From IMG/VR virus record IMGVR_UViG_3300037785_000027, positions 1 through 27,807 of that record: a stretch of DNA of 27,807 nucleotides, one strand, 5' to 3'. This document shows, piece after piece, positions 12,466 to 27,807 of this stretch; the stretch's first letter is position 1, and every line of letters begins with the position of its first letter. This stretch comes from a virus. Its lineage: Duplodnaviria > Caudoviricetes. The notes beneath the pieces were generated by a model. That model made no database searches, was not told where the DNA came from, and was given only the letters and a program-made list of their open reading frames with translations. Position numbers and translations under genes: made by a program.

Positions 12466-12494
12466 ACCATAGCATAGTGGTGGATACGTGTCAA
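12466..12494 (-). promoter_or_regulatory. early promoter TTGACA-N17-(TGC)TATGGT
   Basis: Read directly. Confidence 0.75.
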
Positions 12495-12959: not shown

Positions 12960-12988
12960 GGGTATCCCGTAGTGATACCCTATTTATC
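12960..12988 (-). promoter_or_regulatory. late promoter GATAAATA directly followed by an RBS-occluding hairpin
   Basis: Minus strand reads GATAAATA-GGGTATC-actacgg-GATACCC-ATG. Confidence 0.65.
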
Positions 12989-13196
12989 AAATCGTGGTGT
13001 TAACACCGTCGCCCCACTCGTTTAGGGTGTCATAGGTGCAGATGAAGTCTCCGATTTCGTTCATTCCAAAATCGCTCAAGAAACGTACGGTGCCTCCACC
13101 CACGTAGTCGCTTTCCTCCTCGGAGATGTAGACTCGAATCGCTTCCTCAACCTCTTCTCGGGTGAGGGTGTACACGACTTTTTTAGACACTTGCAT
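12987..13196 (-). CDS. hypothetical protein
   Basis: AAGGA RBS; tight packing. Confidence 0.6.
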   Translation of the reverse strand: MQVSKKVVYTLTREEVEEAIRVYISEEESDYVGGGTVRFLSDFGMNEIGDFICTYDTLNEWGDGVNTTI

Positions 13197-13207
13197 TTAG
13201 GATCCTT

Positions 13208-13552
13208 TCAGGCTTCTAGACTCTGGCTTTCGACTGGAATCACCCCACGAAGAAGAATCTCCTTCGCCACGTCTTCAATAGGTACGTAAGCCCCAATGTA
13301 GTGCTCGTCTTCTTCCCAGAAGGTAGGTTCGACGTCGCTCAGGTTCATCACTTCGACGTGAGTCCACGGACCGTAGTCGCTGCGAGGGGTGCAGTAGTTG
13401 TATGCTGCGGCTTGAACCGAGAACTTGGATCCATCTAAGCATGTGATGGCTTCGACAGGCGCTTTGAAGCCGCCGCGTTCGATGCTGGCCGATGACAGGT
13501 GTTGTTGGAGAGCCTCAACCGTGCTCTGCACTTGCTGCTGGTCGAACTTCAT
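13208..13552 (-). CDS. conserved hypothetical phage protein
   Basis: ITCLDGSKFSVQA...YCTPR...WTHVEV...YVPIE pattern; ATGA overlap. Confidence 0.7.
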   Translation of the reverse strand: MKFDQQQVQSTVEALQQHLSSASIERGGFKAPVEAITCLDGSKFSVQAAAYNYCTPRSDYGPWTHVEVMNLSDVEPTFWEEDEHYIGAYVPIEDVAKEILLRGVIPVESQSLEA

Positions 13553-13953
13553 GCGAAATCATACTCCTTAAACGTTACGATCTCCATCAGATCCTTGACC
13601 AGCTGGCGACCTTCCTCAGTGAACAGGATATCCCGTTCCCATACCCAGTGCTCCACGCACTGCACATTGTAGAACTCGTCTTCGCTGGTCATCCAACGAA
13701 GAGCGGTAGCGCGGTCGCCAGCACCGAGTTCGATCAGGTTAGCGACCTGCGCTTCGAAGTCCCGAAGCGCGCGGGCTTCGTGCTCTTTCTCGGCTTCGAT
13801 GTTTTCGCTGACGATCTCGACCAGGGTGTCCCAAGTCTTGTGCTTTTCAGCGAGAGACTTGGAGTTCCACTGCTGGAACCACCAAGTGCTGGGACGGCTG
13901 CCGTAGGCATCTTTGTAGAGATCGGAAACGCAGGAGAAGTCAAAGTCGGACAT
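13549..13953 (-). CDS. conserved hypothetical phage protein
   Basis: SDLYKDAYGSRP and GAGDRATALRW motifs; GAGG RBS and own promoter. Confidence 0.7.
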   Translation of the reverse strand: MSDFDFSCVSDLYKDAYGSRPSTWWFQQWNSKSLAEKHKTWDTLVEIVSENIEAEKEHEARALRDFEAQVANLIELGAGDRATALRWMTSEDEFYNVQCVEHWVWERDILFTEEGRQLVKDLMEIVTFKEYDFA

Positions 13954-13978
13954 TGGTCACCTCTTTTCTTACAAGATC

Positions 13979-14007
13979 AACCTACAACATCCGAACAAGA
14001 ATGTCAA
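13979..14007 (-). promoter_or_regulatory. early promoter TTGACA-N17-TAGGTT
   Basis: Read directly; TCTTGTAA downstream. Confidence 0.7.
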
Positions 14008-14014
14008 GCGGTTT

Positions 14015-14242
14015 TCACCACTCCGGCAAGTCTTTTTTCACCTCTTCCGGCGTGTTGTAGTATCGGGCTGCGTTACCAGACACCACCGAGGTTGGCCAAC
14101 CGAAGTCCGGATCGTTCTTGATGCGCTTGAAAGCCGATCGACACTCCTTGCGGGAGAACTCCTGTCGGCTCCAAGCAAGGGGACGCACTAGGCGAGAATC
14201 GCCATAGAGCGCCACCAGTACATGCAAGGCGTCTATCTTCAC
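14015..14242 (-). CDS. hypothetical protein
   Basis: GTGA overlap with the RNA ligase stop. Confidence 0.55.
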   Translation of the reverse strand: MKIDALHVLVALYGDSRLVRPLAWSRQEFSRKECRSAFKRIKNDPDFGWPTSVVSGNAARYYNTPEEVKKDLPEW

Positions 14243-15414
14243 CCGTAGTACTCCACGTCGAGGCCGATCATCTTCTCGGCCGCTTCCCAGTTCACGTTGC
14301 GCGTGGTCTTGGTCTTCAAGAAGGTGGTGACCACATCGAACGCCGTTGCGCCTTCCTTGCTCAGATCGAGGTAGCGGAAGAACATCGGCTTGAGGTTCGG
14401 GTCGACCTTTTCGTTGACGTACTTCGTGGCAATCGACTTGCGATCTTCCCCGTACTCCTCGACTGCCTCACGAACCCAAGTCTCCAGCTTCGCAGAGATG
14501 TCGTATATGGCGTCGTGGAGAAGAGTGGCGTAAGCACGAATGGCTTCCGCGCGCTTCGGCGGGACTTTGGCCAGAGTGTCGTCGAGACCACCGTCGAGGA
14601 CCAGAGCCGCGACGCTACGCGCCACAGAAGTCTCGTCTACCACGCGGTGCAGCTGGACGTACTCGTCGGTCTTGATCTTCACCCGAGTTCCGTTCTCGAA
14701 AGCCACGATGAAGCCTTCGATGTCGCGCATAGCCGAAACGGCGTTGAGGAAGTCTGCGGTCGATTCAACGTTACGCGACTCGACAATCGGCACCGGGGAC
14801 ATCTTTGCAGTTACAGATTCCAGCGGCAGGTATTCGCCAGTGAGGTTAACCCGGATAGCCAGAAGCGTGAACTTGGGAGTGTCTCCGTAGTCGATCACGA
14901 CCCGGTTCGCAGGCGAGCACCATTCGAAGATCGGGGTCAAGCCCATACCGTAGAGCATACGCGCCCAGATATCGAACGGAATCTCATAAGTCTCCTTCAC
15001 CCATTCCAGAGCCGCGTCTGCGATTTCAGTCATGCCCATCTTGGTGCAGAACCGAATTTCTCCTTCGTGCATGATCGGGTGGATCATGGAACCGTCGAGC
15101 TTGTCCAGGATACGGTGCGGCTTGGAGAAGTCGAGGTTCTCCACACGAGTCTCTTCTTTCTCCCCAAGGTTGAAGAACTTGTGGAGCGGGCGACCGATCA
15201 GTTTGCCGTCTTTGTCGAACTTGAGTCCACGACATTCCCGACGGATCTTCCACCCGAGTTCGTCGTCGGCTCCACGCGCGAAGGTCTCTTCAAAGGCAAC
15301 CGTGTAGTCGATCACGGTACCGAAGTCCCGCTCAGCGACGATGAACTCGTTATATCCCTCGATATGAGGAAGGACGTCTTCGATGGTGCGAATGGTCGGA
15401 AATTCGTAGCTCAT
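14239..15414 (-). CDS. rnlA: RNA ligase 1 (T4 RnlA/gp63-like)
   Basis: Motifs ECRGLKF, KFFNLGE, motif I KLDGS, FEWCSPANRVV, EGFIV and KIKTDEY. Confidence 0.9.
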   Translation of the reverse strand: MSYEFPTIRTIEDVLPHIEGYNEFIVAERDFGTVIDYTVAFEETFARGADDELGWKIRRECRGLKFDKDGKLIGRPLHKFFNLGEKEETRVENLDFSKPHRILDKLDGSMIHPIMHEGEIRFCTKMGMTEIADAALEWVKETYEIPFDIWARMLYGMGLTPIFEWCSPANRVVIDYGDTPKFTLLAIRVNLTGEYLPLESVTAKMSPVPIVESRNVESTADFLNAVSAMRDIEGFIVAFENGTRVKIKTDEYVQLHRVVDETSVARSVAALVLDGGLDDTLAKVPPKRAEAIRAYATLLHDAIYDISAKLETWVREAVEEYGEDRKSIATKYVNEKVDPNLKPMFFRYLDLSKEGATAFDVVTTFLKTKTTRNVNWEAAEKMIGLDVEYYG

Positions 15415-15421
15415 TGAGTTC

Positions 15422-15634
15422 TCACTTTACCACTTTGTATTCAAACACGAACCGTTCGTAGTTCATTTCGCGCTGGATGATTCCTCGATCATACAACCAC
15501 TGTAAAGCATGGTGGTCGTAGTCTTTGTTGCCGTCTTGGTCTTTGAAGCTTCCGTCTCCAGAGTTCTGGGTGAAAACTTTCCCGAGCGCGCTTTCGTACG
15601 CTTTACGGATCACCTTGTTGGGAAAGTTTTTCAT
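15422..15634 (-). CDS. hypothetical protein
   Basis: First gene after the promoter at 15661-15689. Confidence 0.6.
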   Translation of the reverse strand: MKNFPNKVIRKAYESALGKVFTQNSGDGSFKDQDGNKDYDHHALQWLYDRGIIQREMNYERFVFEYKVVK

Positions 15635-15660
15635 ATCGTCGTCTCTTTAGCTTCGACTAC

Positions 15661-15689
15661 AGACTAGCACGGAGCAGAGGTCAAGTCAA
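15661..15689 (-). promoter_or_regulatory. early promoter TTGACT-N17-(TGC)TAGTCT
   Basis: Read directly. Confidence 0.7.
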
Positions 15690-15693
15690 GCGG

Positions 15694-15828
15694 TTAATCG
15701 TCCGACATAGTCATAACTTTAGAGAGCGCCTCCAGGAAGAGGAAGGCCATGACTATGATCCAGATCACCACTCCAATCCCTGATAGGAGAAAGGATGCGA
15801 TCATTAAAATTTCGATAGCTCCCATCAT
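15694..15828 (-). CDS. 44-aa membrane peptide (absent from ORF track)
   Basis: MMGAIEILMIASFLLSGIGVVIWIIVMAFLFLEALSKVMTMSDD; GGAG upstream. Confidence 0.55.
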   Translation of the reverse strand: MMGAIEILMIASFLLSGIGVVIWIIVMAFLFLEALSKVMTMSDD

Positions 15829-16020
15829 TCAAGCTCCAGAAACTTCAGGGTCTTCCGACCGCGTATCGAAGTCGATGGTGTTGGAGTATACAAAGGAAAG
15901 TTCGGGCGCGAACGTGAACGCGAACAGCCAGAACAGGATGTTCAGCGGAAGCGAGAACACCGGACCAGCGTTAATCATTGGCCAGAGCGGGGTAGGGTAG
16001 GGGTAGTAAAAGAAGCGCAT
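15829..16020 (-). CDS. 63-aa membrane protein
   Basis: MRFFYYPYPTPLW...LNILFWLFAFTF; GGAGG RBS before the ATG at 16020. Confidence 0.6.
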   Translation of the reverse strand: MRFFYYPYPTPLWPMINAGPVFSLPLNILFWLFAFTFAPELSFVYSNTIDFDTRSEDPEVSGA

Positions 16021-16021
16021 G

Positions 16022-16171
16022 TCAGTTTCCTCCGTGGAAGTCAGCTTCGGCGTTGAGGTGTTCGAGGACTTCGATATCGACGAACTGAATGGTGCCTTGG
16101 AACATAGCAAGGTAGATCAGGTACGTCACAGTGGCGACGAACGCCAGAATGGTCAGTTGGTGTAGGATCAT
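16022..16171 (-). CDS. 49-aa membrane peptide (absent from ORF track)
   Basis: MILHQLTILAFVATVTYLIYLAMFQGTIQFVDIEVLEHLNAEADFHGGN; directly after a promoter. Confidence 0.6.
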   Translation of the reverse strand: MILHQLTILAFVATVTYLIYLAMFQGTIQFVDIEVLEHLNAEADFHGGN

Positions 16172-16199
16172 GGCTCATCTCTCTCTCAGTTACAGATAG

Positions 16200-16228
16200 A
16201 CCATAGCACGACTAGGTTACCCTGTCAA
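16200..16228 (-). promoter_or_regulatory. early promoter TTGACA-N17-(TGC)TATGGT
   Basis: Read directly. Confidence 0.75.
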
Positions 16229-16777
16229 GCGGTTTGTTAGCTCCTCAAGATTTATTGGTCGATAATCGGTCTTCTCCACGCAGACGTTGAAGTACCTACC
16301 TTCCGGCGGATCCCATTGGTGAATGTGTCCGTGGATGTTGTAGAGTTCCACTGCATCCTCAGGGTACTTCCCTTTCCTATTCAGCAACCGGAGTTTCGAT
16401 TCTCTGTGGATCGGTACGTGAGACAGCAAGACACCTAGTTCGGGGAACATACGCCACATCTGTACCTTCTGAAAGATGCCAGTGCCGACTAGGAACGGAA
16501 TGTCGTCGTGGTTGCCAACGATGAGGCGCTTGCGCCCTGGTAGCTTTCGAATGGTCTCTACGGTAGATTCCTTCTCGCCCATCATGACGTCCCCGAGGTG
16601 GTACACGATGTCCCCGGGCGCTACTGTTTCAGCCCAGTGATCGTACATCTCCTGGTTCATCTGTTCGACCGATGCAAACCTATCCCCGCGAATCAGTTCT
16701 CCATCGCCACCACGGAAAGTCAAGATGTTGGCGTGGTCAAAATGAGTGTCAGAAATAAGCCAAGCGTTTCGCATCAA
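16217..16777 (-). CDS. calcineurin-like metallophosphoesterase
   Basis: Motifs SDTHFDH, HLGDV, GNHD, SHVP and HGHIH. Confidence 0.9.
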   Translation of the reverse strand: MMRNAWLISDTHFDHANILTFRGGDGELIRGDRFASVEQMNQEMYDHWAETVAPGDIVYHLGDVMMGEKESTVETIRKLPGRKRLIVGNHDDIPFLVGTGIFQKVQMWRMFPELGVLLSHVPIHRESKLRLLNRKGKYPEDAVELYNIHGHIHQWDPPEGRYFNVCVEKTDYRPINLEELTNRLTG

Positions 16778-16968
16778 ATATCCTCAAGGTTCGTCTTTTC
16801 CATTCCAGTCGCAGGAGGGTTGTGTGGTTTGAACCGAGCCTGCTTCTCTTCCATGAGCGCGATAGACCGCAGAATCTCGGCTCGACTTTCGGGAGGCATA
16901 CCCTCTGGCCAAGTGATAGTCGCTGGTCCCCACTTGGTAGATACCTTGGTCACATCGGTCATTATCAT
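16774..16968 (-). CDS. hypothetical protein
   Basis: GAGGGAG RBS; ATGA overlap with the downstream gene; exact start uncertain. Confidence 0.5.
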   Translation of the reverse strand: MIMTDVTKVSTKWGPATITWPEGMPPESRAEILRSIALMEEKQARFKPHNPPATGMEKTNLEDI

Positions 16969-16999
16969 CTCCCTCAACAGTCACATGGGTATATAGTGC

Positions 17000-17791
17000 T
17001 CAGACGTCTCCGCTGATCGGATAATATGGGCTTTTCTCCGCTTGACCTTCTTTAGGCTTCGTGTCAATAAATTGGTTTGTGACGTACTCTTCCTGTTCTT
17101 CGAACGTAGAAAGCAGGTAGTTCTTAGCGCTGACATAGCTCTGGCCGCAGGGCAAAGACCGGTCACTCCTAACGAACGTTCCAAACCTGAAGATTTCAGG
17201 CTGGTCTTCCCAGATCACGCCATATTCATCCTGAAGAATTTGGATCATACTGGTGCTGGATAGACCCTGCATCTTCTTGTGACCAGCGGTCCACCGAAAC
17301 AAAGAAGAGATGCTATTGCGTCGGCAATCCTGAATGCGCCAGAGGACGTTGTTAGCGACTTCTCCAGTAGTTGGCACCCCGAAAGCCCGAGCGTCAAACA
17401 GAGCAAGCTCAGCCTTACCACCGAGTGGGTTATCGATAGAATTGTTGAACGTAGCCGAAGCGAAAGACGCCAAGATGGAGTTCAGCTTGGAAATCTTTCC
17501 ACCAAACATATGCTCGGTCTGCTTCTCGGTTTTCCCGAAGACCAGGGTGATCTCATCCGACTGAGTGTAGCCCAAGATAGCATTGGTGTAATCCACGAGG
17601 GCGGTAGTAGTCGTGGTCATGGCTAGCCAGATTCGCTCGTCAAACGGACGGTCGAATGGTTTCGTGTACTTGCTGAAACCGTTACCGTCCAGACGAACGA
17701 TCAGGTATTGGTCGAGCGGGACCCGATAACCGGTGTACGCACCTTCGTACGCCTTCATGCGGTCGCCGAGACTGTCTTTTGAAGTTGTCAT
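17000..17791 (-). CDS. thg1: tRNA(His) guanylyltransferase Thg1-like protein (3'-5' polymerase family)
   Basis: Motifs DRMKAYE, RLDGNGFSKYT, YTQSDEIT, FDARAF and WRIQDCRRNS. Confidence 0.92.
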   Translation of the reverse strand: MTTSKDSLGDRMKAYEGAYTGYRVPLDQYLIVRLDGNGFSKYTKPFDRPFDERIWLAMTTTTTALVDYTNAILGYTQSDEITLVFGKTEKQTEHMFGGKISKLNSILASFASATFNNSIDNPLGGKAELALFDARAFGVPTTGEVANNVLWRIQDCRRNSISSLFRWTAGHKKMQGLSSTSMIQILQDEYGVIWEDQPEIFRFGTFVRSDRSLPCGQSYVSAKNYLLSTFEEQEEYVTNQFIDTKPKEGQAEKSPYYPISGDV

Positions 17792-18312
17792 TCAAGAACC
17801 TCCACGAGCTTACGGATGGGTCGGTCATCCGGTTTGCCACGGTCGATCCGGCCCTGTCGAGCAAGCTGGGCATAGTCCTCTTTGCTGTAGAGATACCCGT
17901 TGTACTCCCAGAAGACTTTGGGTTCAACAGGGGCAGGCGCAATCCGGTAGGAAAGATAGTCAACCAACTCGCGATGTCCAAGTCGGAGACCTTCCCCGAC
18001 GTCTACATTACACCACTCTCCATCTACGTAGTACTCTACCGGGTCTCCACTGTAGACGGCCAAGAGGATTGCACCCTTCTCTGCGTTGTCCAAGTCTTTC
18101 CAAGCTGTCGGCTCCACAACTTCTTCAACGAGGTCCAGGGGATGCTCATCAAAGGATGTCGCCTTTCCGTTCAGGTACCAGTCGAAACTAGTTTCTGAGC
18201 TAAGGGCATCCTTAAACCCCAAGAGTTCTCCATCGGACGCGTAATGCTCCATCATCGGTCCACGGATCTTTCCATCACGGGTACGGTACATACGACCTTC
18301 TTGAATTTTCAT
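17788..18312 (-). CDS. hypothetical protein
   Basis: N-terminal EGRMYRTRDGK...DLVEE small beta-domain pattern; ATGA overlap. Confidence 0.7.
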   Translation of the reverse strand: MKIQEGRMYRTRDGKIRGPMMEHYASDGELLGFKDALSSETSFDWYLNGKATSFDEHPLDLVEEVVEPTAWKDLDNAEKGAILLAVYSGDPVEYYVDGEWCNVDVGEGLRLGHRELVDYLSYRIAPAPVEPKVFWEYNGYLYSKEDYAQLARQGRIDRGKPDDRPIRKLVEVLE

Positions 18313-18324
18313 GTCTTGCCCCTT

Positions 18325-18762
18325 TTACTTGATAAACACAGTTGCGATAGTGCAGTGGTTGTAGTCTTCGAAGTAGCCCTTCCAATCTCCGGTGTAGACC
18401 TCGACGCCTTCAAAGTCAATTCTGTTCTTCTCATCGCGGCTGTTACTGTCGATCAGGTGCACCAAGCGACCAGCCCGCGCCAAGTCCGTGAAAGCCCACA
18501 GAACGGTGTGGCGACCAGACTCGCGGCCAAAGCTGTCTCCGGTGTCGTAATCGACGACCACCAGAAGAAGAACGTCTCCTTTCTTGGGCTCGGTTTCACC
18601 GGGGAATAGCGCGACGTCACCCCACTGATCTTCGGTGTCTACGATGTAGGCACCATTGTAGGAGTAGCAGTGGTCCTCGGACCACGTATAGTCCCAGCGC
18701 CCTCCATCTCCCTGTTCTTCGTCGCGTCTTCCGTAGTCGCGCACATCTAGGTTAAAGTACAT
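18325..18762 (-). CDS. acidic hypothetical protein
   Basis: Start trimmed to MYFNLDV (GAGGA RBS); YDTGDSFG motif. Confidence 0.65.
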   Translation of the reverse strand: MYFNLDVRDYGRRDEEQGDGGRWDYTWSEDHCYSYNGAYIVDTEDQWGDVALFPGETEPKKGDVLLLVVVDYDTGDSFGRESGRHTVLWAFTDLARAGRLVHLIDSNSRDEKNRIDFEGVEVYTGDWKGYFEDYNHCTIATVFIK

Positions 18763-18772
18763 CTTGATTTCC

Positions 18773-19024
18773 TCAGAAGTAAACGTGGATGTTAGAGGCG
18801 AGGTTGCTATTTTCGAGCATTTCTGCGGCGTCGAGAACGATGCTGTCCCGGTGGCCACCATGAACTTCGATCCCGCCGGGGATTTCGATATAGACGTTAA
18901 GCCCGCCACCATAGGTCGAGCGAACCATAGTGATGGTGCCTTCAAACGGGGCACCGCAATAGTACCCCGTCACCGAGCAACCTTCGCCGTTCTGGTAGAG
19001 TTCGTTGTAGAACGTGTTGGACAT
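18773..19024 (-). CDS. hypothetical protein
   Basis: GAGG RBS; first gene after a promoter. Confidence 0.65.
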   Translation of the reverse strand: MSNTFYNELYQNGEGCSVTGYYCGAPFEGTITMVRSTYGGGLNVYIEIPGGIEVHGGHRDSIVLDAAEMLENSNLASNIHVYF

Positions 19025-19050
19025 GTTAGCCTCTCTCTAGCTTCAAGTCT

Positions 19051-19079
19051 TGTATAGCATAGTGGAGGAGCGCTGTCAA
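19051..19079 (-). promoter_or_regulatory. early promoter TTGACA-N17-(TGC)TATACA
   Basis: Read directly. Confidence 0.7.
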
Positions 19080-19082
19080 CCG

Positions 19083-20210
19083 TTAATCTTCACGTTCTCC
19101 AAAACCGTAGTCGACCACGACGGGGAAGCGCGGGACTCCATCCGGAGTAGGAGTGAAGTAGCGAAGCGTGACCCAGTCCGGCGTCTTACCCTCTTCGTGC
19201 AGAGCTTTCAGTTGCTCCTGAGAGCCACGAACTCCAGCCCCACAGGTTTGCCCGTTGCCGAGGTCGATGATGAACCGCTTGATGTAGCCAGACCAGTTAC
19301 CCAGCCCCTCTTCCATAGAGACGACCCGGAACTCATCGGTCAGAAACTCCTTGCGCTTGATCAGGTTCTTCGACCGCTTGTTCTCGTACCCAGAACTCCC
19401 AATACGAAGCATCTGGCCTTCATACCCTTGCTCCAAGTACTCCCCATAGAGAGCGTCGGTTTCTTCGGCTGAAAGGATGAGGTCGGTGCGCACTAGAACG
19501 ATGCTAGCCGGGGTCTTTCCCGAGCCAAGAAGTTGTTGAAGCGCCTTGTTTCGAATGTCGAACGGATCGGCACTGTACAGGTCGTAGACGTGGTACTGGA
19601 CCAGCTTCGCGGTCTCTTCCAGATCCTCAGAGGTCGGTTTCTGCTTTCGCACCAAGCTGGTGATCTTGTTGAAGTTGTCTTTCAGATCGTGGTTGTACAG
19701 TTCACCGTCGAGGATTAGAGTCGGGTACTCCTCGAAGTAGGGACGCAGCGCTTCCATGATGTGAGGGACTGAGGTGATCGGTTTACCCTGTCGAGTCCAC
19801 AGACCATCTTTGCGAGCGATGCAGCGAATGCCATCCAGCTTGGGCTGAGAGAAGACGGTGCCGTCCCAGTCGATCTTGGCGTCTTCGTACTTGCTAGCCA
19901 GCATCGGCTTGAACTTGTCGAACTTGTCGATGTTGTCCATGTCGTAGAAGTAGCCGCGCTCCAGCTTCTTCTCCATCGAAGCCTTAGCCTCAGCTAGTGC
20001 CTGCTCCTGGGGAGTCGTCTCGTTGGCGCGCCCGACGTTCTTGGCTTCGACGACGCGCCACCCCGAAGTCACCAGCTTACCACCAAGAGTCCCAGAGACT
20101 GCGGCCCAGCCCCAGTTAGTCCCGTCGGTTCCGACTAGGTATCGCCAAGTACGGGTCTTCCCCGTCGAGTCTTGTTTGAAGATTTCGGGTCCTGTTGCCG
20201 TCGGTTCCAT
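19083..20210 (-). CDS. lig: ATP-dependent DNA ligase
   Basis: Motifs PMLA, motif I QPKLDGIRC, LDGELY, YHVYD, EGQMLR, KRK and PRFP. Confidence 0.95.
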   Translation of the reverse strand: MEPTATGPEIFKQDSTGKTRTWRYLVGTDGTNWGWAAVSGTLGGKLVTSGWRVVEAKNVGRANETTPQEQALAEAKASMEKKLERGYFYDMDNIDKFDKFKPMLASKYEDAKIDWDGTVFSQPKLDGIRCIARKDGLWTRQGKPITSVPHIMEALRPYFEEYPTLILDGELYNHDLKDNFNKITSLVRKQKPTSEDLEETAKLVQYHVYDLYSADPFDIRNKALQQLLGSGKTPASIVLVRTDLILSAEETDALYGEYLEQGYEGQMLRIGSSGYENKRSKNLIKRKEFLTDEFRVVSMEEGLGNWSGYIKRFIIDLGNGQTCGAGVRGSQEQLKALHEEGKTPDWVTLRYFTPTPDGVPRFPVVVDYGFGERED

Positions 20211-20219
20211 GTATTTTCC

Positions 20220-20474
20220 TTAGCGATACGCAGTGGGGTTGAGTTGAGCAAGCGTAACGTTGACGGTGTACTCTTCCCCGAGCTTGAACAGGCGATCTCC
20301 TTGTTCAGGCTTGTAGGAACCCGAGATGAGTAGTTCTCCGGCGTTCACCGCGTTGAGCAGGGAGAGTTTTTCTTCTCCATCTCGGTACTGTACCAGGAGG
20401 TACTGCCAGGTCTTTCGTGCGGACCCGGTTCGGGCTCTACTGGCGGGATACACCTCGTACATTGTTTCGTCCAT
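20220..20474 (-). CDS. hypothetical protein
   Basis: GGAG RBS before the ATG at 20474; promoter upstream. Confidence 0.6.
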   Translation of the reverse strand: MDETMYEVYPASRARTGSARKTWQYLLVQYRDGEEKLSLLNAVNAGELLISGSYKPEQGDRLFKLGEEYTVNVTLAQLNPTAYR

Positions 20475-20500
20475 ATTAGTTCTCCATCTGCTTCGTGTTA

Positions 20501-20529
20501 AGGGTATCATGGGGTGGGACCTTAGTCAA
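20501..20529 (-). promoter_or_regulatory. early promoter TTGACT-N17-(TGA)TACCCT
   Basis: Read directly. Confidence 0.6.
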
Positions 20530-20578
20530 GCTGAAAGTACAGGCCATTTAGGGTTTCAGGTCGTCCATTGTCATATAG

Positions 20579-20818
20579 TCATTCCTTTTCTCCACAACTG
20601 CACTCATAATACTCGACACGTTCTTTGGGATACCAACGAATGTCGTCCTTGTTAACCCATTTTGTGTATGGAATAAACCCAAGAAACTTCTTACGGACTT
20701 TTTGGTATTCTCTGGTATGTCCGTATTTGGTCACCCGTTTACAGAACGGGAGAAGTTCAACAGGCTCTAGATCATATCCGTAGTCACCGAACACACTTTC
20801 ATAAGGTTGATTCATCAT
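20579..20818 (-). CDS. hypothetical protein (AT-rich segment)
   Basis: ORF with ATGA overlaps and A/T-ending codons. Confidence 0.6.
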   Translation of the reverse strand: MMNQPYESVFGDYGYDLEPVELLPFCKRVTKYGHTREYQKVRKKFLGFIPYTKWVNKDDIRWYPKERVEYYECSCGEKE

Positions 20819-21015
20819 ATTCCATCCTTTTCAATCATCTCAATAACTCTTAGTATTGCGTGTCGAGTCATGTAACACGCATCTTTGTAACGTTGGATCA
20901 TTTCATCCTTAGTTAGTGGAGAGTGTCTGAAACCAACTTCAAGGCTATCATACAACGGATTTTCAAGGCAATCAACACAAAAATTCAGGTTGACTAGCAG
21001 TTCTTCTTTGGTCAC
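20815..21015 (-). CDS. hypothetical protein (AT-rich segment)
   Basis: GTG start at 21015 after a GGAGGT RBS. Confidence 0.6.
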   Translation of the reverse strand: MTKEELLVNLNFCVDCLENPLYDSLEVGFRHSPLTKDEMIQRYKDACYMTRHAILRVIEMIEKDGI

Positions 21016-21017
21016 GC

Positions 21018-21644
21018 CTATACCTCCAGATCCATGTAGTCGCATTCTCCCAGACACTGGAACTTGGTTCCGTTGATTTCCATGTTCTTCGTATCGTGCC
21101 AGTGACCGAAGATCCAGTACTCTGGCTGGTGCAGTTCGAACATCGCTTGAAGCGCCTCACCCGTGCGAGTCAAGTACTGCACCCGACCAGCTAGCGTTTC
21201 CCCAGCCCGAACGAACATGTAGTAAGACGCTAGCGTCGGGCAGTCGTGAGTGACCATAACGCGTGGCTTCACTTGTTCGTACACGTCAATCAACGTGCCT
21301 AGTTCTTGGTAGCTGAGTTCTTCATCTTTCCACCAGTCGATCCCGGGGGTGCGAGTCATGTGGTCGATGCTCCACGCACCACCAATAAACATGACGTCTC
21401 CATTCACGGTACCATCTGGAATCCAACCGACCATCTCTTTACACCGCTCAGGATGGTCGTGGTTTCCACGAATGAACTTGTGCTGTCCACTGGCATGGTA
21501 TTCGTTCACTCGGTCATGCCATTTCTGGTACCAGAAGCCGATCGTGAAGTCTCCGACCTGTACTGTGTTACCGTCGAACCCTTTGGTCACGTCGATGTAC
21601 GTGGACACCTTACCGTGGATGTCTCCTACGAATCTGGTTAGCAT
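21018..21644 (-). CDS. calcineurin-like metallophosphoesterase (second family)
   Basis: Motifs GDIHG, QVGDF, RGNHD, GGAWSID, THDCP and FGHWH; start trimmed to MLTRF. Confidence 0.9.
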   Translation of the reverse strand: MLTRFVGDIHGKVSTYIDVTKGFDGNTVQVGDFTIGFWYQKWHDRVNEYHASGQHKFIRGNHDHPERCKEMVGWIPDGTVNGDVMFIGGAWSIDHMTRTPGIDWWKDEELSYQELGTLIDVYEQVKPRVMVTHDCPTLASYYMFVRAGETLAGRVQYLTRTGEALQAMFELHQPEYWIFGHWHDTKNMEINGTKFQCLGECDYMDLEV

Positions 21645-21850
21645 TTCAGTTCTCCTCGTTTGGCGGCCCGAAGGATGTCTATACCCTTCGCCCAAATATA
21701 CTGGTCGCCAAACGTGCCTCGCCGCGCGTAGCGTAAAACGCCGTCTGCGGCAACCATGACGTTTCCGACTCGGTTGACATAGTTGTTCAGGTGAAGCTCC
21801 GCCCAAGCTCGCTGGCGTTCTTCGGGTGTGGTTGCGCGGTCGTAGCTCAT
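21638..21850 (-). CDS. hypothetical protein
   Basis: GAGGA RBS before the ATG at 21850. Confidence 0.6.
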   Translation of the reverse strand: MSYDRATTPEERQRAWAELHLNNYVNRVGNVMVAADGVLRYARRGTFGDQYIWAKGIDILRAAKRGELKC

Positions 21851-21857
21851 AGAATCC

Positions 21858-22301
21858 TCAGATGAACGCGATAATGAATAGGAGCACGAAGGTGAACCCA
21901 AGGATGGCGGTCATAGACGGCGAGAGGAATATCCCCTTCTCGCGCTCTTCTAGTTTCTCCTGAAGCTCCTTGTTTTCTTTAGTCAGCCGATCTACCTCCT
22001 TCTCGACCGCGCGAACCAACGTCAAGTCGTTCTGGTCGCTAAGACGGTAATATTCTTTCAGCGCCTTGATGTGAGACTCCGCATATTCTAGCTTCTTGGC
22101 ATATCTCTTAGCCTCTTCCATCCACCTGACCCCGAGGCGATAAACCCGGTCGTACTCTTGCTTAGCCTGCTCCCGTTCGTTAGCCGAGAAGTCGATGCCA
22201 CCGCCAGTATGCTTCTTACGGGCCATGCGAAGCGCGGAAACCGCCTCTTCTTCCGAAGAAGTCGAGAGCGCTTTCCGCATAAGGCTTTCAACCACGCTCA
22301 A
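21858..22301 (-). CDS. coiled-coil protein with DUF2786-like N-terminus and C-terminal TM anchor
   Basis: RKALSTSSEEEAVSALRMA N-terminus; heptad-rich middle; hydrophobic tail. Confidence 0.6.
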   Translation of the reverse strand: MSVVESLMRKALSTSSEEEAVSALRMARKKHTGGGIDFSANEREQAKQEYDRVYRLGVRWMEEAKRYAKKLEYAESHIKALKEYYRLSDQNDLTLVRAVEKEVDRLTKENKELQEKLEEREKGIFLSPSMTAILGFTFVLLFIIAFI

Positions 22302-22467
22302 GGTATTTCTCCTCGATCTTGGCGAACGCTTTGGCGTCGTCCGTTTCGTAGAACAGGCTCGGATCCTTGATGTTGTAGAGGTTACAGAACCACTGACCCG
22401 TGCGCTGGTGTAGTGGCTTGGTGGCCAGCGTGGCGCAGAAGTCTTGGTATTCGTCTTGGCTGATCAC
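22288..22467 (-). CDS. hypothetical protein
   Basis: Likely GTG start at 22467 after GGAG; QRTGQWFCN...LFYETD motif. Confidence 0.6.
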   Translation of the reverse strand: MISQDEYQDFCATLATKPLHQRTGQWFCNLYNIKDPSLFYETDDAKAFAKIEEKYLERG

Positions 22468-22491
22468 GACAATCTCCATCATTACAAGAAC

Positions 22492-22520
22492 ACTCTAGCA
22501 CCACTCACCGGTCCTGTCAA
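22492..22520 (-). promoter_or_regulatory. early promoter TTGACA-N17-(TGC)TAGAGT
   Basis: Read directly; TCTTGTAA downstream. Confidence 0.75.
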
Positions 22521-22523
22521 GCG

Positions 22524-22745
22524 TTAACCCTTCTTAATTTTTTCCGTCGCGTACATGACAGCGTCGATCACGGAAATAGCCATTACCATTTGCCACGGGA
22601 ACCACCCAGCCGCCATAAGCAGATAAAACGGTGCCATAGACCATGTGAAGAAACAAGCCATAAAAATAGACACCAAAAGCCCAGCTGTTAGCAGAGACAT
22701 CACTAGTAGCGCGTGAACTCCGGCTAGTCTGAGGAACATCGTCAT
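22524..22745 (-). CDS. small hydrophobic membrane protein
   Basis: ATGA overlap with the RNA ligase stop; almost entirely hydrophobic. Confidence 0.55.
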   Translation of the reverse strand: MTMFLRLAGVHALLVMSLLTAGLLVSIFMACFFTWSMAPFYLLMAAGWFPWQMVMAISVIDAVMYATEKIKKG

Positions 22746-23770
22746 TCGCCACCTTTGAGAAGAAACTGGTTGCTGATGGCCTTGAAGCTGAACTCCGGCT
22801 TCTCGTTGCACTTCCAGACGAGACCCTCGCGGATCTGGTTATGGATGCTGGGACCATCGGCTAGAGACAGTGCCTCTTCTACCGAGTCAGGTGCTTTGGC
22901 ATTAGTGACCAAGACCGGCACGTGGTCCAAACCTGCTCGCTCTACCATCTCTCGTCGCTCTGGTGGAGTCAGGTAACGTTGCCCAGTGATCTCCAGAACG
23001 TCGAAGACGAAGAACTGAAGGTCCTTGAACCCCTCACGGTTGCCTTGAATGCCAGGACCCATCAGTTCGCCTTGGAAGACGTAACCCTCGGGGATCTGGT
23101 CTCCGATGCGGTTCGCCATCTGGACGAAAGAGTTAGTGGCATTGTCTTCGTTGATCTTTAGCTCCAGGTTCCGGCTGCAAACTCGCAGGTCTCCCTCGTG
23201 GCGGAAGATCGTCATCGAAGAACCGTCGAGCTTCATCGAAATCTCGTAGGTGAAGTCCCCACGGAGAAGCTTCGGGAAGCAGTTCTGGATGCGCTCTTGA
23301 TCGGTCTTGGGCGCAATTTCAGTCGGGAAGTTGCCACGCGCTTGGCCCTGTAGCTGGGCCGCAATTGGTGCTTCCCACTTCTGGACACCAAGACATTCAG
23401 TCAGATCATCGCCGATTCGTTCTTCATCGTCGAGGATATTCTTTTGAAAGTTCTCGTCAGACCACTCAGAAAACACAGGGCGGAGAGGCAGAAGCAGCCC
23501 CTGGCTGATCTGGCCGCGCAGCTTGATGGTACGCAGACGTTCGCCCTTGACCCCATTGTACTCGCGCGGCTCTTTCCCCTTCGAGAGGAACGGAGCCAGT
23601 TCATGTGGAACCCAGCTGTCAATCTCTAGGTAGAGCGCCAGTTCACCAGGTGTGAACTCTCCTTTCTTAACTACGACCCTCCATCCATCGACGGTAGCGA
23701 CTTCAATGGCGTCCGCGCCTTCGATGGGGTCAATCGAAGCGATTTGTCGGATACTTGCTAGTTTTCGCAT
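22742..23770 (-). CDS. RNA ligase, DRB0094 family
   Basis: Motifs RKLASI, LRGQISQGL, PKTDQERIQN, KLDGSS, QGELMGPGIQGN, REGLV and FKAISNQFLLK. Confidence 0.92.
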   Translation of the reverse strand: MRKLASIRQIASIDPIEGADAIEVATVDGWRVVVKKGEFTPGELALYLEIDSWVPHELAPFLSKGKEPREYNGVKGERLRTIKLRGQISQGLLLPLRPVFSEWSDENFQKNILDDEERIGDDLTECLGVQKWEAPIAAQLQGQARGNFPTEIAPKTDQERIQNCFPKLLRGDFTYEISMKLDGSSMTIFRHEGDLRVCSRNLELKINEDNATNSFVQMANRIGDQIPEGYVFQGELMGPGIQGNREGFKDLQFFVFDVLEITGQRYLTPPERREMVERAGLDHVPVLVTNAKAPDSVEEALSLADGPSIHNQIREGLVWKCNEKPEFSFKAISNQFLLKGGE

Positions 23771-23794
23771 TCACATTCTCCATGTTTACAAGAC

Positions 23795-23823
23795 ACTGTA
23801 GCTCAGCTACTGGTCTTTGTCAA
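23795..23823 (-). promoter_or_regulatory. early promoter TTGACA-N17-(GC)TACAGT
   Basis: Read directly; TCTTGTAA downstream. Confidence 0.75.
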
Positions 23824-24019
23824 GCTCTAATTTTCGAATCTGCCTAGTCTCGGAGACCACGACCAGAACCGAGATCGCGGCCGCTGATAGAAATATTGTG
23901 GCTAGAGCGAAGTCTCCAACACACAGGCTGAACACCCCGACTACTAACCCAAAGAGACCAAGGACGGCCATGTTGAAACGACTGTGGCGCAGGCCAGCTA
24001 TAAGTTCTTCTTGGTTCAA
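23807..24019 (-). CDS. small two-TM membrane protein
   Basis: Probable TTG start overlapping the upstream TGA; two hydrophobic segments. Confidence 0.55.
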   Translation of the reverse strand: MNQEELIAGLRHSRFNMAVLGLFGLVVGVFSLCVGDFALATIFLSAAAISVLVVVSETRQIRKLELDKDQ

Positions 24020-24426
24020 GGTCCTGACCTCACGATCTTTCGTCCGTGAGTCAGCGTAACGAATCGTCCATCTCTCACTTCGTACCACGTATCTTCCCAA
24101 GGGCCGCGAATAGTGAAGCACCAAGAAGTGGTCAGGGCGTTGACGCGGTGGATGTTGTCTTTCTTGGTGACTTTGGGCAGCAACGACCGCTTATAGATCG
24201 TAGACTTCTTTCGTAGCTCCAACGGCTCTTCGATCAAGAAGCCGCTGAGAAACCAGGTCCATGCGTGGAACGCGTGGCTGTGGTAAGCTTCGCGACGTCC
24301 CTTGTTGAATCGAAGGAATGCCACGCTAGCAAACTTCTTGGCTTCAAACAGAAAGAAGGCATCGACGGGCGAATCTGGCCCGCCGTCTTTCGCCCACTCC
24401 AAGATACGCACGTTTCCGATCTTCAT
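24016..24426 (-). CDS. cupin-fold protein
   Basis: YHSHAF...FLSGFLIEE...IHRV...WCFTIRGPW (HxH...E...H metal motif). Confidence 0.7.
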   Translation of the reverse strand: MKIGNVRILEWAKDGGPDSPVDAFFLFEAKKFASVAFLRFNKGRREAYHSHAFHAWTWFLSGFLIEEPLELRKKSTIYKRSLLPKVTKKDNIHRVNALTTSWCFTIRGPWEDTWYEVRDGRFVTLTHGRKIVRSGP

Positions 24427-24833
24427 TGGGTAGTCTCTGCTCGGAATACTGGAACTCTTGCTTTGACCGCTCGGCTGATCATGTCTTCGGTTCCTTTACC
24501 ACCTGGGAACGCCAACACCATATTTGGCTGCCCCTCTTCTAGCATACGCTGGTTGCGAATCGGACCAGCTCTGCGCCCATGAGTTTTCCAGTCTGCCTTG
24601 AAGACCCTCACTGGTACGTCATTCTCTCTGGCCCACTCCTCAGCTAAAGTGTCTGCACCCGGAGCGCCCCCGGAGATCACGACAAGGCAATCTCCGAGTT
24701 TTTCTAACGCCCCGTCGAGGTAAGAGTAGACGATTTCTCTGTGGTTGTAGTCGCGTCCACCACAGACTATAAGTCGCGCTTCTTTACCCGCCAAAAGAAG
24801 TCCCTCCGCTGGTACGACCAGCGCCAAACCCAC
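24423..24833 (-). CDS. SLOG-superfamily (DUF2493/YspA-like) protein
   Basis: Motifs VCGGRDY, SGGAPGAD, AGPIRNQRM and AFPGGKGTEDM; exact start uncertain. Confidence 0.85.
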   Translation of the reverse strand: MGLALVVPAEGLLLAGKEARLIVCGGRDYNHREIVYSYLDGALEKLGDCLVVISGGAPGADTLAEEWARENDVPVRVFKADWKTHGRRAGPIRNQRMLEEGQPNMVLAFPGGKGTEDMISRAVKARVPVFRAETTQ

Positions 24834-25428
24834 CAGTCGAGCGAGCTACCGGTGCAGGACGTGCAGAGGTGAAGCCCGTGGCAGGGCGCGCTTGAGTAGT
24901 GCTGGTGAAGCGCGGCGAGGTGCTCGGTGCCGAACGTAGCGACCGATCGATGCTCTGGAACCCAGGACGACGCGCTACCGTGCTAAAACCACTCCCGTTG
25001 TTGATGAGATAGCTGTTACGGTCTTCGCGGTTGTTGTACATCGGGCGACCAGACCCAGACAGCGCGTTGCCAATCAGGTACCCAGCCATCAGCGGTAGAA
25101 GGAACGACCCACCGTCGCTGTCCGTTCGAGCCACGCAGTTGCCTACCCCGTGAATCTCTTCACAAGTAGCTGTGTCGTTGTAGCGAGGAGCCACGCGGTC
25201 GTGCTCCGCGGTGGCGCCAGCAAAGCCTTCTTCGCATAGCTCCGGGGTGATGGTGTCACTCGATCGGCTAGCCGTAATGCAAGCATCCATAGACTCGAAT
25301 ACGCGCCCACCATTCTGTGTGGGATCCTCGACTTGACAAGCTGATAGAGCCAGCGCCGAAACCATAGCTCCAGTCAGGACGAACCCTCGGGTGATGTTTC
25401 CTCGTTTCACGTTGCTTCCTTTCATCAT
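24784..25428 (-). CDS. DUF1190 (YgiB/YjfM-like) lipoprotein
   Basis: Lipobox LSAC; APRY...CEEIHGVGNC; FLLPLMAGYLIG; low-complexity tail ending GGFGAGRTSGGTSFGG. Confidence 0.9.
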   Translation of the reverse strand: MMKGSNVKRGNITRGFVLTGAMVSALALSACQVEDPTQNGGRVFESMDACITASRSSDTITPELCEEGFAGATAEHDRVAPRYNDTATCEEIHGVGNCVARTDSDGGSFLLPLMAGYLIGNALSGSGRPMYNNREDRNSYLINNGSGFSTVARRPGFQSIDRSLRSAPSTSPRFTSTTQARPATGFTSARPAPVARSTGGFGAGRTSGGTSFGG

Positions 25429-26588
25429 TATGCAATCAGGTGAGGTTTGAAGCGGCTCAAGTTCTGCGTGATCCGACTCTTGTCTTCTCGAATACCCATT
25501 CCAACGCAGTCTCGGCCGACGATCCAGCTCCCGATGACGGGTCGCGCCCCGTTGAAGTTAGGAAGCTCTACGTATTTTTGCACAATCTTGGTGTGCTGAT
25601 TGTATGTAGTGTCACCAGCCGACTCTTCCAGCTGGCCGTTGTTGAAGATGTCGATGGACGATCCCTCCCGAGAGAAGATCGGCTTTCGAACATACTGGCT
25701 ACCAAGGTCCGCTTGCTCTTCACCCTCAAAGTAGGCAGGGAGAAGATTCTTGTGCCCCTTGAACTTGTTCCACAGAACCGGTAGGATAGCTTTGTTCGAC
25801 ACGATAGCTTTCCACGGTGGTTCGAACATACGTACGCCCGACGACTTCAGGTAGACAGCGAAGTCATCCCGAAGCATGTCTTCCCACGGGTACAGCTTGA
25901 ACATCTGGTCGATGTACTCCTCGTTCACCGAGGACATGAACTGTCCGTTCTCTGCAATGGCGATATGTTCGGTCGCCACGTACTCGACTCGGAACCCAGC
26001 ATCCGAAGCAGCCCATGCCAGAGTCTCCACCGTGGCGTAGTCTTCGACGTTTTCTGGACCACCGACCGAGGAGAAGTAGAAGGGAAGGTCTTCGGTCATG
26101 TAGTAACGAATGTGCTCCAGACGTTTCACCAGGGCTTCGTAGATCGAATTGAACTGGTCCTTGTCTTTCGCCACATCTTCGAGCCATTCCCACTGGTACA
26201 TCGCCGCTTCGTACAGAGAAGTCGGGGTGTCGCCGTTGTACTCCAGCATCTTGGCGGGGCCAGTTCCGTCGTACACCAAGTCGAATCGGCCGTAAAGCTC
26301 GGGTTCGTCCTTCTTGTAAGACTGCGCCACGTAGTCCCAGTGTTGCTCCGGAATCCCGAACTTTGCCATCAGGCTCTCATCGGCGATAACATCGGCGACC
26401 GCATCGCGAACCATAGCGTGTAGCTCAGTGGACGGATCCTCGATGTCGTCTTCGACCTGCTTCAGGTTAAATTCGTAGTACGAAGATTCGTCCCAGTAGG
26501 TCTCTCCGTACATAGTGTGGAAGTCGAACCCGGCTTCTTCGGCAATCTGTTGCCAGTTCTCACGGGGTTGGGTTTCGATACGTTTCAT
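25428..26588 (-). CDS. glutathionylspermidine-synthase-like ATP-grasp ligase (YgiC/YjfC family)
   Basis: Motifs YWDES, LYGRFD, KMLEYNGDTPT, FKLYPWE, EPPWK, SNKAILP, KPIFSREG, GIRED and SRFKPH. Confidence 0.95.
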   Translation of the reverse strand: MKRIETQPRENWQQIAEEAGFDFHTMYGETYWDESSYYEFNLKQVEDDIEDPSTELHAMVRDAVADVIADESLMAKFGIPEQHWDYVAQSYKKDEPELYGRFDLVYDGTGPAKMLEYNGDTPTSLYEAAMYQWEWLEDVAKDKDQFNSIYEALVKRLEHIRYYMTEDLPFYFSSVGGPENVEDYATVETLAWAASDAGFRVEYVATEHIAIAENGQFMSSVNEEYIDQMFKLYPWEDMLRDDFAVYLKSSGVRMFEPPWKAIVSNKAILPVLWNKFKGHKNLLPAYFEGEEQADLGSQYVRKPIFSREGSSIDIFNNGQLEESAGDTTYNQHTKIVQKYVELPNFNGARPVIGSWIVGRDCVGMGIREDKSRITQNLSRFKPHLIA

Positions 26589-26605
26589 TTTTCAGACCAT
26601 TCCTT

Positions 26606-26782
26606 TCAGTCACACATGCCCAGCCAGGCAGCGACGGCGGCTTTATCTCCAAGGAGAAGAGCCCGAGCGCCACACTCTTGGAAGGTGTACACGGCGTTTG
26701 CGATCCCAAGGAGAAAGAAAATAAAGAACAGGATCCGGAACCAAACCGGGATGTCTTGCCACATTTGCCACATTTCAGTCAT
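26606..26782 (-). CDS. 58-aa membrane protein (absent from ORF track)
   Basis: MTEMWQMWQDIPVWFRILFFIFFLLGIANAVYTFQECGARALLLGDKAAVAAWLGMCD; AGGAG RBS; fills the gap. Confidence 0.65.
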   Translation of the reverse strand: MTEMWQMWQDIPVWFRILFFIFFLLGIANAVYTFQECGARALLLGDKAAVAAWLGMCD

Positions 26783-26788
26783 CTCCTA

Positions 26789-27772
26789 TCAGCTTACAAC
26801 ACCAATGTAATACACTGTGGCTCCAATGTCAACAACTTCTTCGTCCACCGAGATGATATTGGTGCCGTAGCCGTTGTCGTACCCGATGAAGCGATATCCC
26901 ACAGCCGATAGCTGGTCGACTAGCTCTTTCACCGAAGTTCGATTCTTGTTGACCATCTGCATGATAGTCGGCGCTTCGGTGCTGGTAGAGATAGAGTTCA
27001 GGACCTTTGCCGCTCCTGGAGACTGCACCGCCCGAGCCAGTTCATCTGTGGTGTTATCGTGTAGAGCGACGACCCTAGAGAACGTAGCTTCTAGAATGTC
27101 CGCTGTAGCTTTGTCGGATACGTGAGCTACCGCTTGAGCATAGCTAGAGTCTCGGTTTAGCATGGCCGCTAGTTTGAACGCGTCCCCGTCCGATGACATG
27201 ATGACGACGTGGTCCGCTTCGGTTGCCGCAGCCCTAGTGTAAGACTCTTGGTCGCATAGTACATCGGTCCATACCCAAGAAACCCGTGGTAGCGACTTGA
27301 CTCGGTCGGAGATTTCCTCAGAGACCACGACGATATCTTGATAGTAGCCCGACAACCGAAGGTCGTTGATCAAGCGCGCAGTTTGCTTTGGCACGAAACC
27401 AAAGATGACAATGTGTCCGGTCATATCTGAGAAGTCTCCTAGTCCATTGCGAGTTCGTTCGATGGAAGCAGTAACGGCGCTAGCAATCTTACCGACTACT
27501 GCGCCAAAGATCAAGAGGGAGAATGGAATGACGAAGAGCGAGTGGAATAGACGACCCGCATCGGTAGATGGGCTTAGGTCTCCGTAACCGACTGTAGACG
27601 CAGTCACCATGTAGAAGTAGGTGTACGTCACTGGATCCGAGACCAAGTCTTCTTCACCAGCTAGAGACAGCCCAACGTAAGTCAAGCTGGCGTGTAGAAT
27701 CGTAACCGCAAGAATGAGGCTAGCGCTAGCAGCGCAAGCCTTTCTCCAGATTCTCCTAAAGAACAGCATCAC
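26789..27772 (-). CDS. two-TM potassium channel with C-terminal RCK/TrkA-N-like domain
   Basis: Selectivity filter TASTVGYGD between two TM helices; HIVIFG Rossmann start with a degenerate GxGxxG. Confidence 0.92.
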   Translation of the reverse strand: MMLFFRRIWRKACAASASLILAVTILHASLTYVGLSLAGEEDLVSDPVTYTYFYMVTASTVGYGDLSPSTDAGRLFHSLFVIPFSLLIFGAVVGKIASAVTASIERTRNGLGDFSDMTGHIVIFGFVPKQTARLINDLRLSGYYQDIVVVSEEISDRVKSLPRVSWVWTDVLCDQESYTRAAATEADHVVIMSSDGDAFKLAAMLNRDSSYAQAVAHVSDKATADILEATFSRVVALHDNTTDELARAVQSPGAAKVLNSISTSTEAPTIMQMVNKNRTSVKELVDQLSAVGYRFIGYDNGYGTNIISVDEEVVDIGATVYYIGVVS

Positions 27773-27807
27773 ACATCCCTTTGTTCGCGCTCCCAGACAG
27801 CAATAGG
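27769..27807 (-). CDS. 3' end of an upstream gene (partial)
   Basis: ...PIAVWEREQRDV-stop overlaps the channel start; too short to assign. Confidence 0.35.
   Translation of the reverse strand, partial: PIAVWEREQRDV

Follow-up and report, generated by a model that had tools for sequence, protein, structure and literature searches.

Here, we describe a conserved two-gene unit in a 27,807-nucleotide stretch of viral DNA (hereafter the window; IMG/VR record IMGVR_UViG_3300037785_000027, positions 1 to 27,807; Duplodnaviria, Caudoviricetes), comprising an ATP-grasp ligase of the YgiC/YjfC family and a DUF1190 lipoprotein with a long disordered tail. We propose, at a probability of about one half, that the ligase amidates the C-terminus of the lipoprotein with a spermidine-type polyamine. 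The window is a 27.8-kb fragment of a T4-like phage, in which our family scan recovered a T4-type RNase H, glutaredoxin, PhoH, PAAR and RNA ligases. Near-identical DNA occurs in pond, algal and aquatic metagenomes, and positions 23733-27807 are spanned without a break, with 59 differences, by a contig of a different sample. An earlier sequence-only reading had described six open reading frames (ORFs) near the end of the window (a K+ channel, a 58-aa membrane protein, the ligase, the lipoprotein, and SLOG and cupin genes) as an operon that could serve membrane-protein tagging or ion-homeostasis counter-defense. All six lie where that reading placed them, abutting or overlapping on the minus strand.

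The ligase matches the GSP_synth profile (PF03738) over its entire length (E 8e-138; profile positions 1-371 of 371) and, among PDB entries, recovers YgiC (7UK8; E 1e-105), YjfC (E 1e-95), trypanothione synthetase (E 1e-34) and GspS (E 7e-23). The YgiC/YjfC identity assigned to it earlier is thereby corroborated, as it constitutes a stand-alone PF03738 domain with no amidase. Eight residues (R101, D103, E116, N118, K266, K302, R307 and R367) are the same in all 86 dereplicated homologues, and presumably serve in ATP, metal and acyl-phosphate chemistry as in GspS. The RxD and ExN motifs and the ATP-binding lysines and arginines are intact, and TPT stands where GspS has SAS (DTPT versus DSAS); comparison of structures and motifs recovered neither the glutathione-site motif nor the fused amidase of GspS. 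By these sequence features it is an intact member of the YgiC/YjfC peptide-polyamine ligases, predicted to perform ATP-dependent peptide-spermidine ligation. In the primary study of YgiC, triglycine reportedly served as the model substrate. A 2025 review (PMC11762307), in the excerpt available, describes YgiC as devoid of glutathionylspermidine synthetase activity and possessed of peptide-spermidine ligase activity, with its physiological substrate unknown; since the former activity is missing, the usual phage annotation, glutathionylspermidine synthase, is likely wrong.

The closest named relatives of the ligase are Rhodobacteraceae proteins at 51-56% identity, an indication of the host group. 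In the likely host family, the one nearest the window's ligase, 16 of 151 genomes encode a ligase. Matches were recovered in 145 of 50,697 phage records, a count that includes duplicates and a few bacterial contigs. Viral and cellular copies interleave in the ligase tree, with seven changes between the two, at least four of them forced by well-supported branches.

The partner lipoprotein matches DUF1190 (PF06693; E 1e-26) and shows a lipobox (LSAC31, with Cys31), a four-cysteine folded core at approximately residues 40-133, and a long, basic, disordered tail; the DUF1190 assignment and the disordered tail ending in SGGTSFGG agree with the earlier description. Its likely start is the GTG at 25410, as homologues are 208 aa long. 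In the AlphaFold model, the core reaches a pLDDT of about 90 and the tail 49-74. Of 131 aligned members, 121 have the lipobox, as do most short forms, indicating that the lipid anchor matters. Core and tail length are highly variable among partners, with the last 20 residues retained; many partners are only 100-150 aa and score under the DUF1190 cut-off, so that annotation understates the link between ligase and lipoprotein. We rejected a membrane-spanning helix as typical of the family, since the candidate stretch is only marginally hydrophobic (median 1.1), residues 108-120 form strands of the folded core in the AlphaFold model, and short partners, inspected by eye, lack such a stretch. The charge around this hydrophobic stretch would suit such a helix, being net negative before it in 127 of 127 members and net positive after it in 125 of 127. 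An Atlas structure search with the lipoprotein returned only DUF1190, plus leads scoring <0.9; UPF0323/Cj0371 (Atlas 0.83; PMC6104132, in part) would be at most a tentative distant partner. Separately, the signal-peptide start of the partners (MKxSxxIxLxL-like) is unusually similar across phyla in loci L026-L077, even in L060 and L063 with their altered lipobox, and is possibly a recognition or slow-export element.

Four residues of the tail motif (G199, G200, F201 and G202) are at least 90% conserved in the alignment of homologues. Of 150 lipoprotein representatives, 87 end in GG; among motif-bearing homologues, this ending occurs in 84 of 127, against 9.8 +/- 3.0 after shuffling. This 127-member set was ranked by a query that includes the tail, and the bacterial set selected through the ligase concurs (45 of 60 GG, the other ends including GS, SS, GE and SA). 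The ending is thus enriched without being obligatory: of 86 dereplicated partners, 48 finish in GG and 38 otherwise, mostly in GS, SS, GE, AS or SA. Across 162 distinct partners, the last residue is G in 113, S in 33, A in 10, E in 5 and T in 1. The constant elements are the motif, a spacer of approximately 12 small residues, and a terminal residue that is small, almost never charged, and bears a free carboxylate. As judged from these alignments, the tail end is under selection.

These endings bear on the ubiquitin-like chemistry suggested by the sequence-only reading, taken here to mean that the ligase would attach the terminal Gly-Gly to lysines on membrane proteins, for instance those of the channel. 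GG is indeed the commonest ending in both the bacterial and the dereplicated pairs. However, the 38 partners with other ends do not fit it, the lipoprotein model shows no ubiquitin (beta-grasp) fold and no PDB match at E 0.001, and the window proteins scanned include no E1 or E2 family. Moreover, the known acceptor of the ligase family is spermidine, according to the partially available literature, and most modules lack a channel. We therefore regard such tagging as highly improbable. A varied last residue (GG, GS, SS, GE, SA) that is small and has a free carboxylate fits amidation of a peptide end better. The broader suggestion that the ligase acts on the tail fares better than its ubiquitin-like form, being favored by the pairing described below, by the selected tail end and by the joining of peptides to polyamines in vitro by YgiC/YjfC, as published in sources seen in excerpt.

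The pairing of the two genes was surveyed in bacterial and viral loci. Ligase matches occurred in 63 of 401 sampled bacterial genomes, of which 60 were used after removal of two GspS-length hits and one genome already in the set; on the viral side, the best 80 of 116 ligase loci were examined, 79 of them with a full-length ligase ORF. A tailed lipoprotein-like gene with the GGFG-type motif adjoins the ligase in 60 of 60 bacterial loci and in 74 of 79 viral loci (75 scored, with one spurious hit removed), the misses including Roseophage DSS3_VP1, whose gene crosses the record end, and two loci with <250 bases upstream. The same partner detector found no tailed lipoprotein in 67 control loci (580 kb). 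Ligase and DUF1190 genes do co-occur in other phages, as the earlier reading required, and the conserved unit is two genes, ligase and tailed lipoprotein. In the likely host family, all 16 ligase genes are followed by the lipoprotein, with 13 ends in GG, two in GT and one in AG. Tails of distant pairs from Bacillus, Pseudomonas and Acinetobacter phages likewise end in small residues. The pair of Bacillus phage PJN02 (L217:1958-3631), with a tail ending in GFGG, comes from a phage of a Gram-positive host, which argues against dependence on an outer membrane.

DUF350 lies near the ligase in 21 of 80 viral and 40 of 60 bacterial loci. In phage Motura (L005:1405-6896), a coiled-coil membrane-anchored protein, a solute-binding protein, homospermidine synthase, the tailed lipoprotein, the ligase and DUF350 form one run, a compact phage form of the bacterial operon in which homospermidine synthase immediately precedes the pair. 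This arrangement was noted in PMC9992855, where the portion available reads it as glutathionylhomospermidine synthesis. In Aeromonas phage LAh_8 (L008:4001-5209), the ligase is annotated as two ORFs, with the lipoprotein and an upstream pore-only K+ channel both intact. Single-sequence scans of viral contigs with the ligase and channel as queries gave no matches. Neighbors linked to NAD/ADP-ribose, considered as a sign of an anti-defense island, were dropped, as NAMPT occurred in 2 of 38 and macro domains in 1 of 38 viral groups, counted with no control.

The lipoprotein also occurs on its own. DUF1190 was found in 142 phage records, including phages of Klebsiella (30), Erwinia (21), Cronobacter (15) and Citrobacter (8), genera that are unnamed among ligase-carrying phages in the 12 of 13 name groups displayed. 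In five of five enterobacterial phages checked, from five genera, PF03738 is missing genome-wide and the lipoprotein ends in SFGG. The E. coli genome, the control in this PF03738 search, carries the ligase, so that borrowing of the host enzyme by such phages would be plausible. In DSS3_PM1 (L010:3334-3970), the DUF1190 gene is intact and the channel and ligase are reduced to fragments, leaving a deletion scar in which a short ORF with part of the channel is followed by only the C-terminal end of the ligase. The lipoprotein thus outlasts the ligase in several phages.

Phage lipoproteins such as T5 Llp block receptors, and the retention of the lipoprotein alone by many unrelated large lytic phages would suit a similar role, whereby it masks or inactivates phage receptors at the cell surface or prevents superinfection, the polyamine then being a tailoring addition. 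However, the lipoprotein is similar across phages with different receptors, and free-living bacteria conserve its gene on the chromosome, in association with PspA, DUF350 and polyamine genes (PMC11237479, in excerpt). We consider this role unlikely.

Under the amidation that we favor, the GGFG motif, approximately 12 residues from the end, would dock on the cytoplasmic ligase; with ATP, an acyl-phosphate would form at the free C-terminal carboxylate and be attacked by the polyamine. Amidation would precede export of the lipoprotein, because the model gives it no membrane-spanning helix; once modified, it would function in the infected cell's envelope. The lipoprotein would be the likely working part, most likely binding anionic envelope components and keeping the envelope intact, and phages would encode a ligase themselves chiefly when their host might have none. 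The K+ channel would be an accessory from the same bacterial operon class, likely tuning K+ flux.

Several observations favor this proposal: the near-universal pairing, the selection on the tail, the loss of the ligase with the lipoprotein kept, the homospermidine synthase of Motura, the presence of the ligase in only some genomes of the host family (the 16 of 151 above), the peptide-spermidine ligase activity of YgiC and, as stated in the accessible part of bioRxiv 2021.12.13.472529, the induction of ygiB by the Cpx envelope response. Others weigh against it. Entry of the tail into the ligase active site is something we infer from sequence, and the topology is awkward, as the lipoprotein is exported whereas the enzyme that would have to act on its end is cytoplasmic. 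Among independent pairs, ligase residues did not vary in step with the partner's C-terminal residue (median p 0.5, at low power); columns that seemed to co-vary had high raw scores, which were gone with phylogenetically independent pairs. Aeromonas and Acinetobacter phages carry both genes, and their hosts probably possess copies themselves, in keeping with an Acinetobacter contig match at 38%. The envelope role would derive entirely from bacterial operon context, known from partially available sources, and from weak phenotypes.

The awkward topology would be partly sidestepped were the tail cleaved, and the ligase might instead make a small peptide-polyamine metabolite from a clipped tail, in the manner of precursor peptides, or from some other peptide, in which case the tail would just bind or regulate the enzyme. 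Small peptides are the substrates of its closest characterized relatives (GspS and trypanothione synthetase), and the variable core and tail length together with the retained last 20 residues would fit a precursor. Yet the retention of the lipobox, even in most short forms, speaks against it, and no protease gene was seen traveling with the pair in the loci read, which were not searched systematically for proteases. We view this alternative as possible, albeit doubtful. Were amidation of the lipoprotein to hold, it would constitute a new, widespread bacterial protein modification, and many phage genes labeled glutathionylspermidine synthase would be mislabeled.

The features of the locus, in order of transcription, are as follows.

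26789..27772, minus strand: MthK-type K+ channel gene, 327 aa (Ion_trans_2 and MthK profile match)
26804..26832, minus strand: promoter-like site TTGACA-17-TACATT, in the final channel codons, ahead of the 58-aa gene
26606..26782, minus strand: 58-aa hydrophobic phage protein, with no family; a neighbor outside the conserved module
25428..26588, minus strand: YgiC/YjfC-family ATP-grasp peptide-polyamine ligase (predicted), 386 aa, without signal peptide (PF03738); core gene
24784..25428 (likely start 25410), minus strand: YgiB/YjfM-type DUF1190 lipoprotein (PF06693); core gene
24787..24840, minus strand: conserved tail of the lipoprotein, comprising STGGFG, 12 small residues and the end Phe-Gly-Gly-COOH (alignment and terminal statistics); putative ligase docking site and substrate end
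24423..24833 (likely start 24794), minus strand: YspA-type SLOG protein (PF10686); a neighbor outside the module
24016..24426, minus strand: cupin-like protein (PHROG 4786); a neighbor outside the module
23795..23823, minus strand: next promoter-like site, upstream of an RNA ligase gene; likely end of the unit

The motif TTGACA-17-TAYA occurs in five copies in the window, against 0.17 expected, and its four minus-strand copies lie at gene boundaries. The copy at the channel's 3' end and the one before the RNA ligase suggest that the 58-aa, ligase, lipoprotein, SLOG and cupin genes probably share a promoter of their own. The copy at 26804-26832 is a candidate phage promoter between channel and ligase, and the channel gene is likely transcribed from farther upstream. 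Scattered pieces of the region also occur as contigs in RNA libraries X12 and X20, which does not prove transcription.

The channel matches Ion_trans_2 (E 2e-13) with a TVGYGD filter, TrkA_N falling below cut-off, and a profile built from its relatives aligns with MthK across positions 6-331 (E 3e-33). With two helices, the filter and a C-terminal RCK domain, it is of MthK type, confirming the TVGYGD channel with an RCK-like domain recognized earlier. Among the 80 best of 450 metagenome loci with channel relatives, 45 had 3.5 kb of downstream flank, and in these the ligase is nearby in 34 and the lipoprotein in 36. Conversely, few ligases adjoin a channel, the counts being 10 of 60 among bacterial loci and 3 of 38 among viral groups; of five isolate phages with the ligase, four lack a K+ channel altogether, and the fifth has one ~18 kb distant. 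The channels adjoining phage pairs have three architectures: two-helix with RCK (window, DSS3_VP1), pore-only (LAh_8, L073/L074) and six-helix (L078-L093), a variety that speaks for a functional tie of some kind. The channels of the window and of DSS3_VP1 form one supported clade, are hence not independent, and were counted once. The L078-L093 viral contigs, mostly of 50-120 kb (e.g. L080:3987-6107), encode in a row a short lipoprotein ending in ISA, the six-helix channel and the ligase; their relative L095 has no channel. The channel is a real but optional partner, from a subfamily tied to ligase operons.

The sequence-only reading had instead suggested that channel, ligase and lipoprotein could be one ion-homeostasis unit offsetting depolarizing abortive-infection effectors. 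The tie of the channel subfamily to the operon and the coupling of three architectures to phage pairs are compatible with this. The likely host family almost never has the channel (1 of 151 genomes, which is not a ligase carrier), and the phage also bears an Acb1 anti-CBASS homolog. Nevertheless, the rarity of the channel beside viral and bacterial ligases and in isolate phages, the single clade of the window and DSS3_VP1 channels, and the promoter-like site parting channel from ligase all speak against it. An open K+ channel, moreover, usually loses K+ on depolarization. Such a unit strikes us as improbable. In a bolder version of polyamine amidation, many phages would exploit it as an undescribed protein modification, some supplying the substrate only and relying on the ligase of the host, and in modules with a channel the polyamine on its long tether would be a built-in channel blocker setting K+ efflux. 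Free spermidine blocks MthK (PMC7335011, partial text), but a tethered blocker would require a tail exposed to the cytoplasm, a placement for which the model gives no support, and we consider this version quite improbable.

The remaining neighbors appear unrelated to the module. The SLOG protein matches PF10686 (E 3e-22), its likely start being the TTG at 24794, which overlaps the final codons of the lipoprotein; the cupin-like protein has no Pfam match and falls in PHROG 4786 (labeled cysteine dioxygenase; E 4e-23). Both earlier assignments thus hold, in contrast to the six-gene system, as single-sequence queries with the SLOG, cupin and 58-aa proteins found no homologs in any of the 80 viral or 60 bacterial ligase loci. 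The 58-aa protein, once suggested as a DUF350 replacement, has one convincing homolog (in L208), lying amid unrelated small phage genes, which does not favor that suggestion; its best Atlas match (0.80) is a viral hypothetical cluster.

Elsewhere in the window, on the minus strand, are the Acb1 anti-CBASS phosphodiesterase homolog (1468-1959; PF23474, E 6e-11), a group 1 glycosyltransferase (6880-7824) and a cytidylyltransferase-like gene (11733-12173). A tRNA repair and maintenance set (9190-23770, minus strand) comprises PTH2 (9190-9618), a CCA-adding enzyme (10479-11699), T4-type RNA ligase 1 (14239-15414), Thg1 (17000-17791), a second RNA ligase (22742-23770) and two metallophosphoesterases. 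PTH2-like and CCA genes flank the ligase-lipoprotein pair in related contigs L020-L022.

Compared with known systems, the pair most resembles E. coli YgiB-YgiC and YjfM-YjfC (PDB 7UK8/7UKA and 7UK6/7UK7), in which a DUF1190 lipoprotein likewise adjoins a PF03738 ligase and whose ligases share all catalytic motifs and the TPT motif with the window's. It differs from these pairs in being phage-borne, in its ligase-then-lipoprotein order, found also in the Rhodobacteraceae-like relatives, and in having no tolC and no PspA or DUF350 within the window. GspS and trypanothione synthetase share the fold of the window ligase and use acyl-phosphate chemistry; GspS differs in its amidase domain and DSAS motif. 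The channel resembles MthK over its full length. Roseophage DSS3_VP1 (NC_055826, Naomviridae) has channel, ligase and lipoprotein in the same order (gp028-gp027-DUF1190), with ligases 53% and channels 28% identical, although it belongs to an unrelated 75-kb phage family, lacks the intervening 58-aa gene, and has a channel and lipoprotein not annotated as such.

The third-group PspA operon of Ravi et al. 2024 (PMC11237479), as far as the accessible text describes it, includes an ATP-grasp ligase, a DUF1190 lipoprotein and a ligand-sensing K+ channel. The window shares these three members only, in another order; none of its 34 scanned proteins is a CesT/Tir-PspA dyad member, DUF350 or DUF2491, in line with the earlier remark that PspA and DUF350 are not visible, and the window stops 35 bases upstream of the channel, so that such genes may lie beyond its end. 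Phage-encoded K+ channels were described by Greiner et al. 2018 (PMC6163359), where the available portion reports other sizes and no link to this ligase. The bacterial operon class, the ligase chemistry, phage K+ channels and phage ligase copies are therefore already known. A full-text literature search, with subscription papers and supplements outside its reach, found neither the tail as a substrate nor the phage trio proposed. Taken together, this comparison names a candidate physiological substrate for the YgiC/YjfC ligases, namely, the lipoprotein tail.

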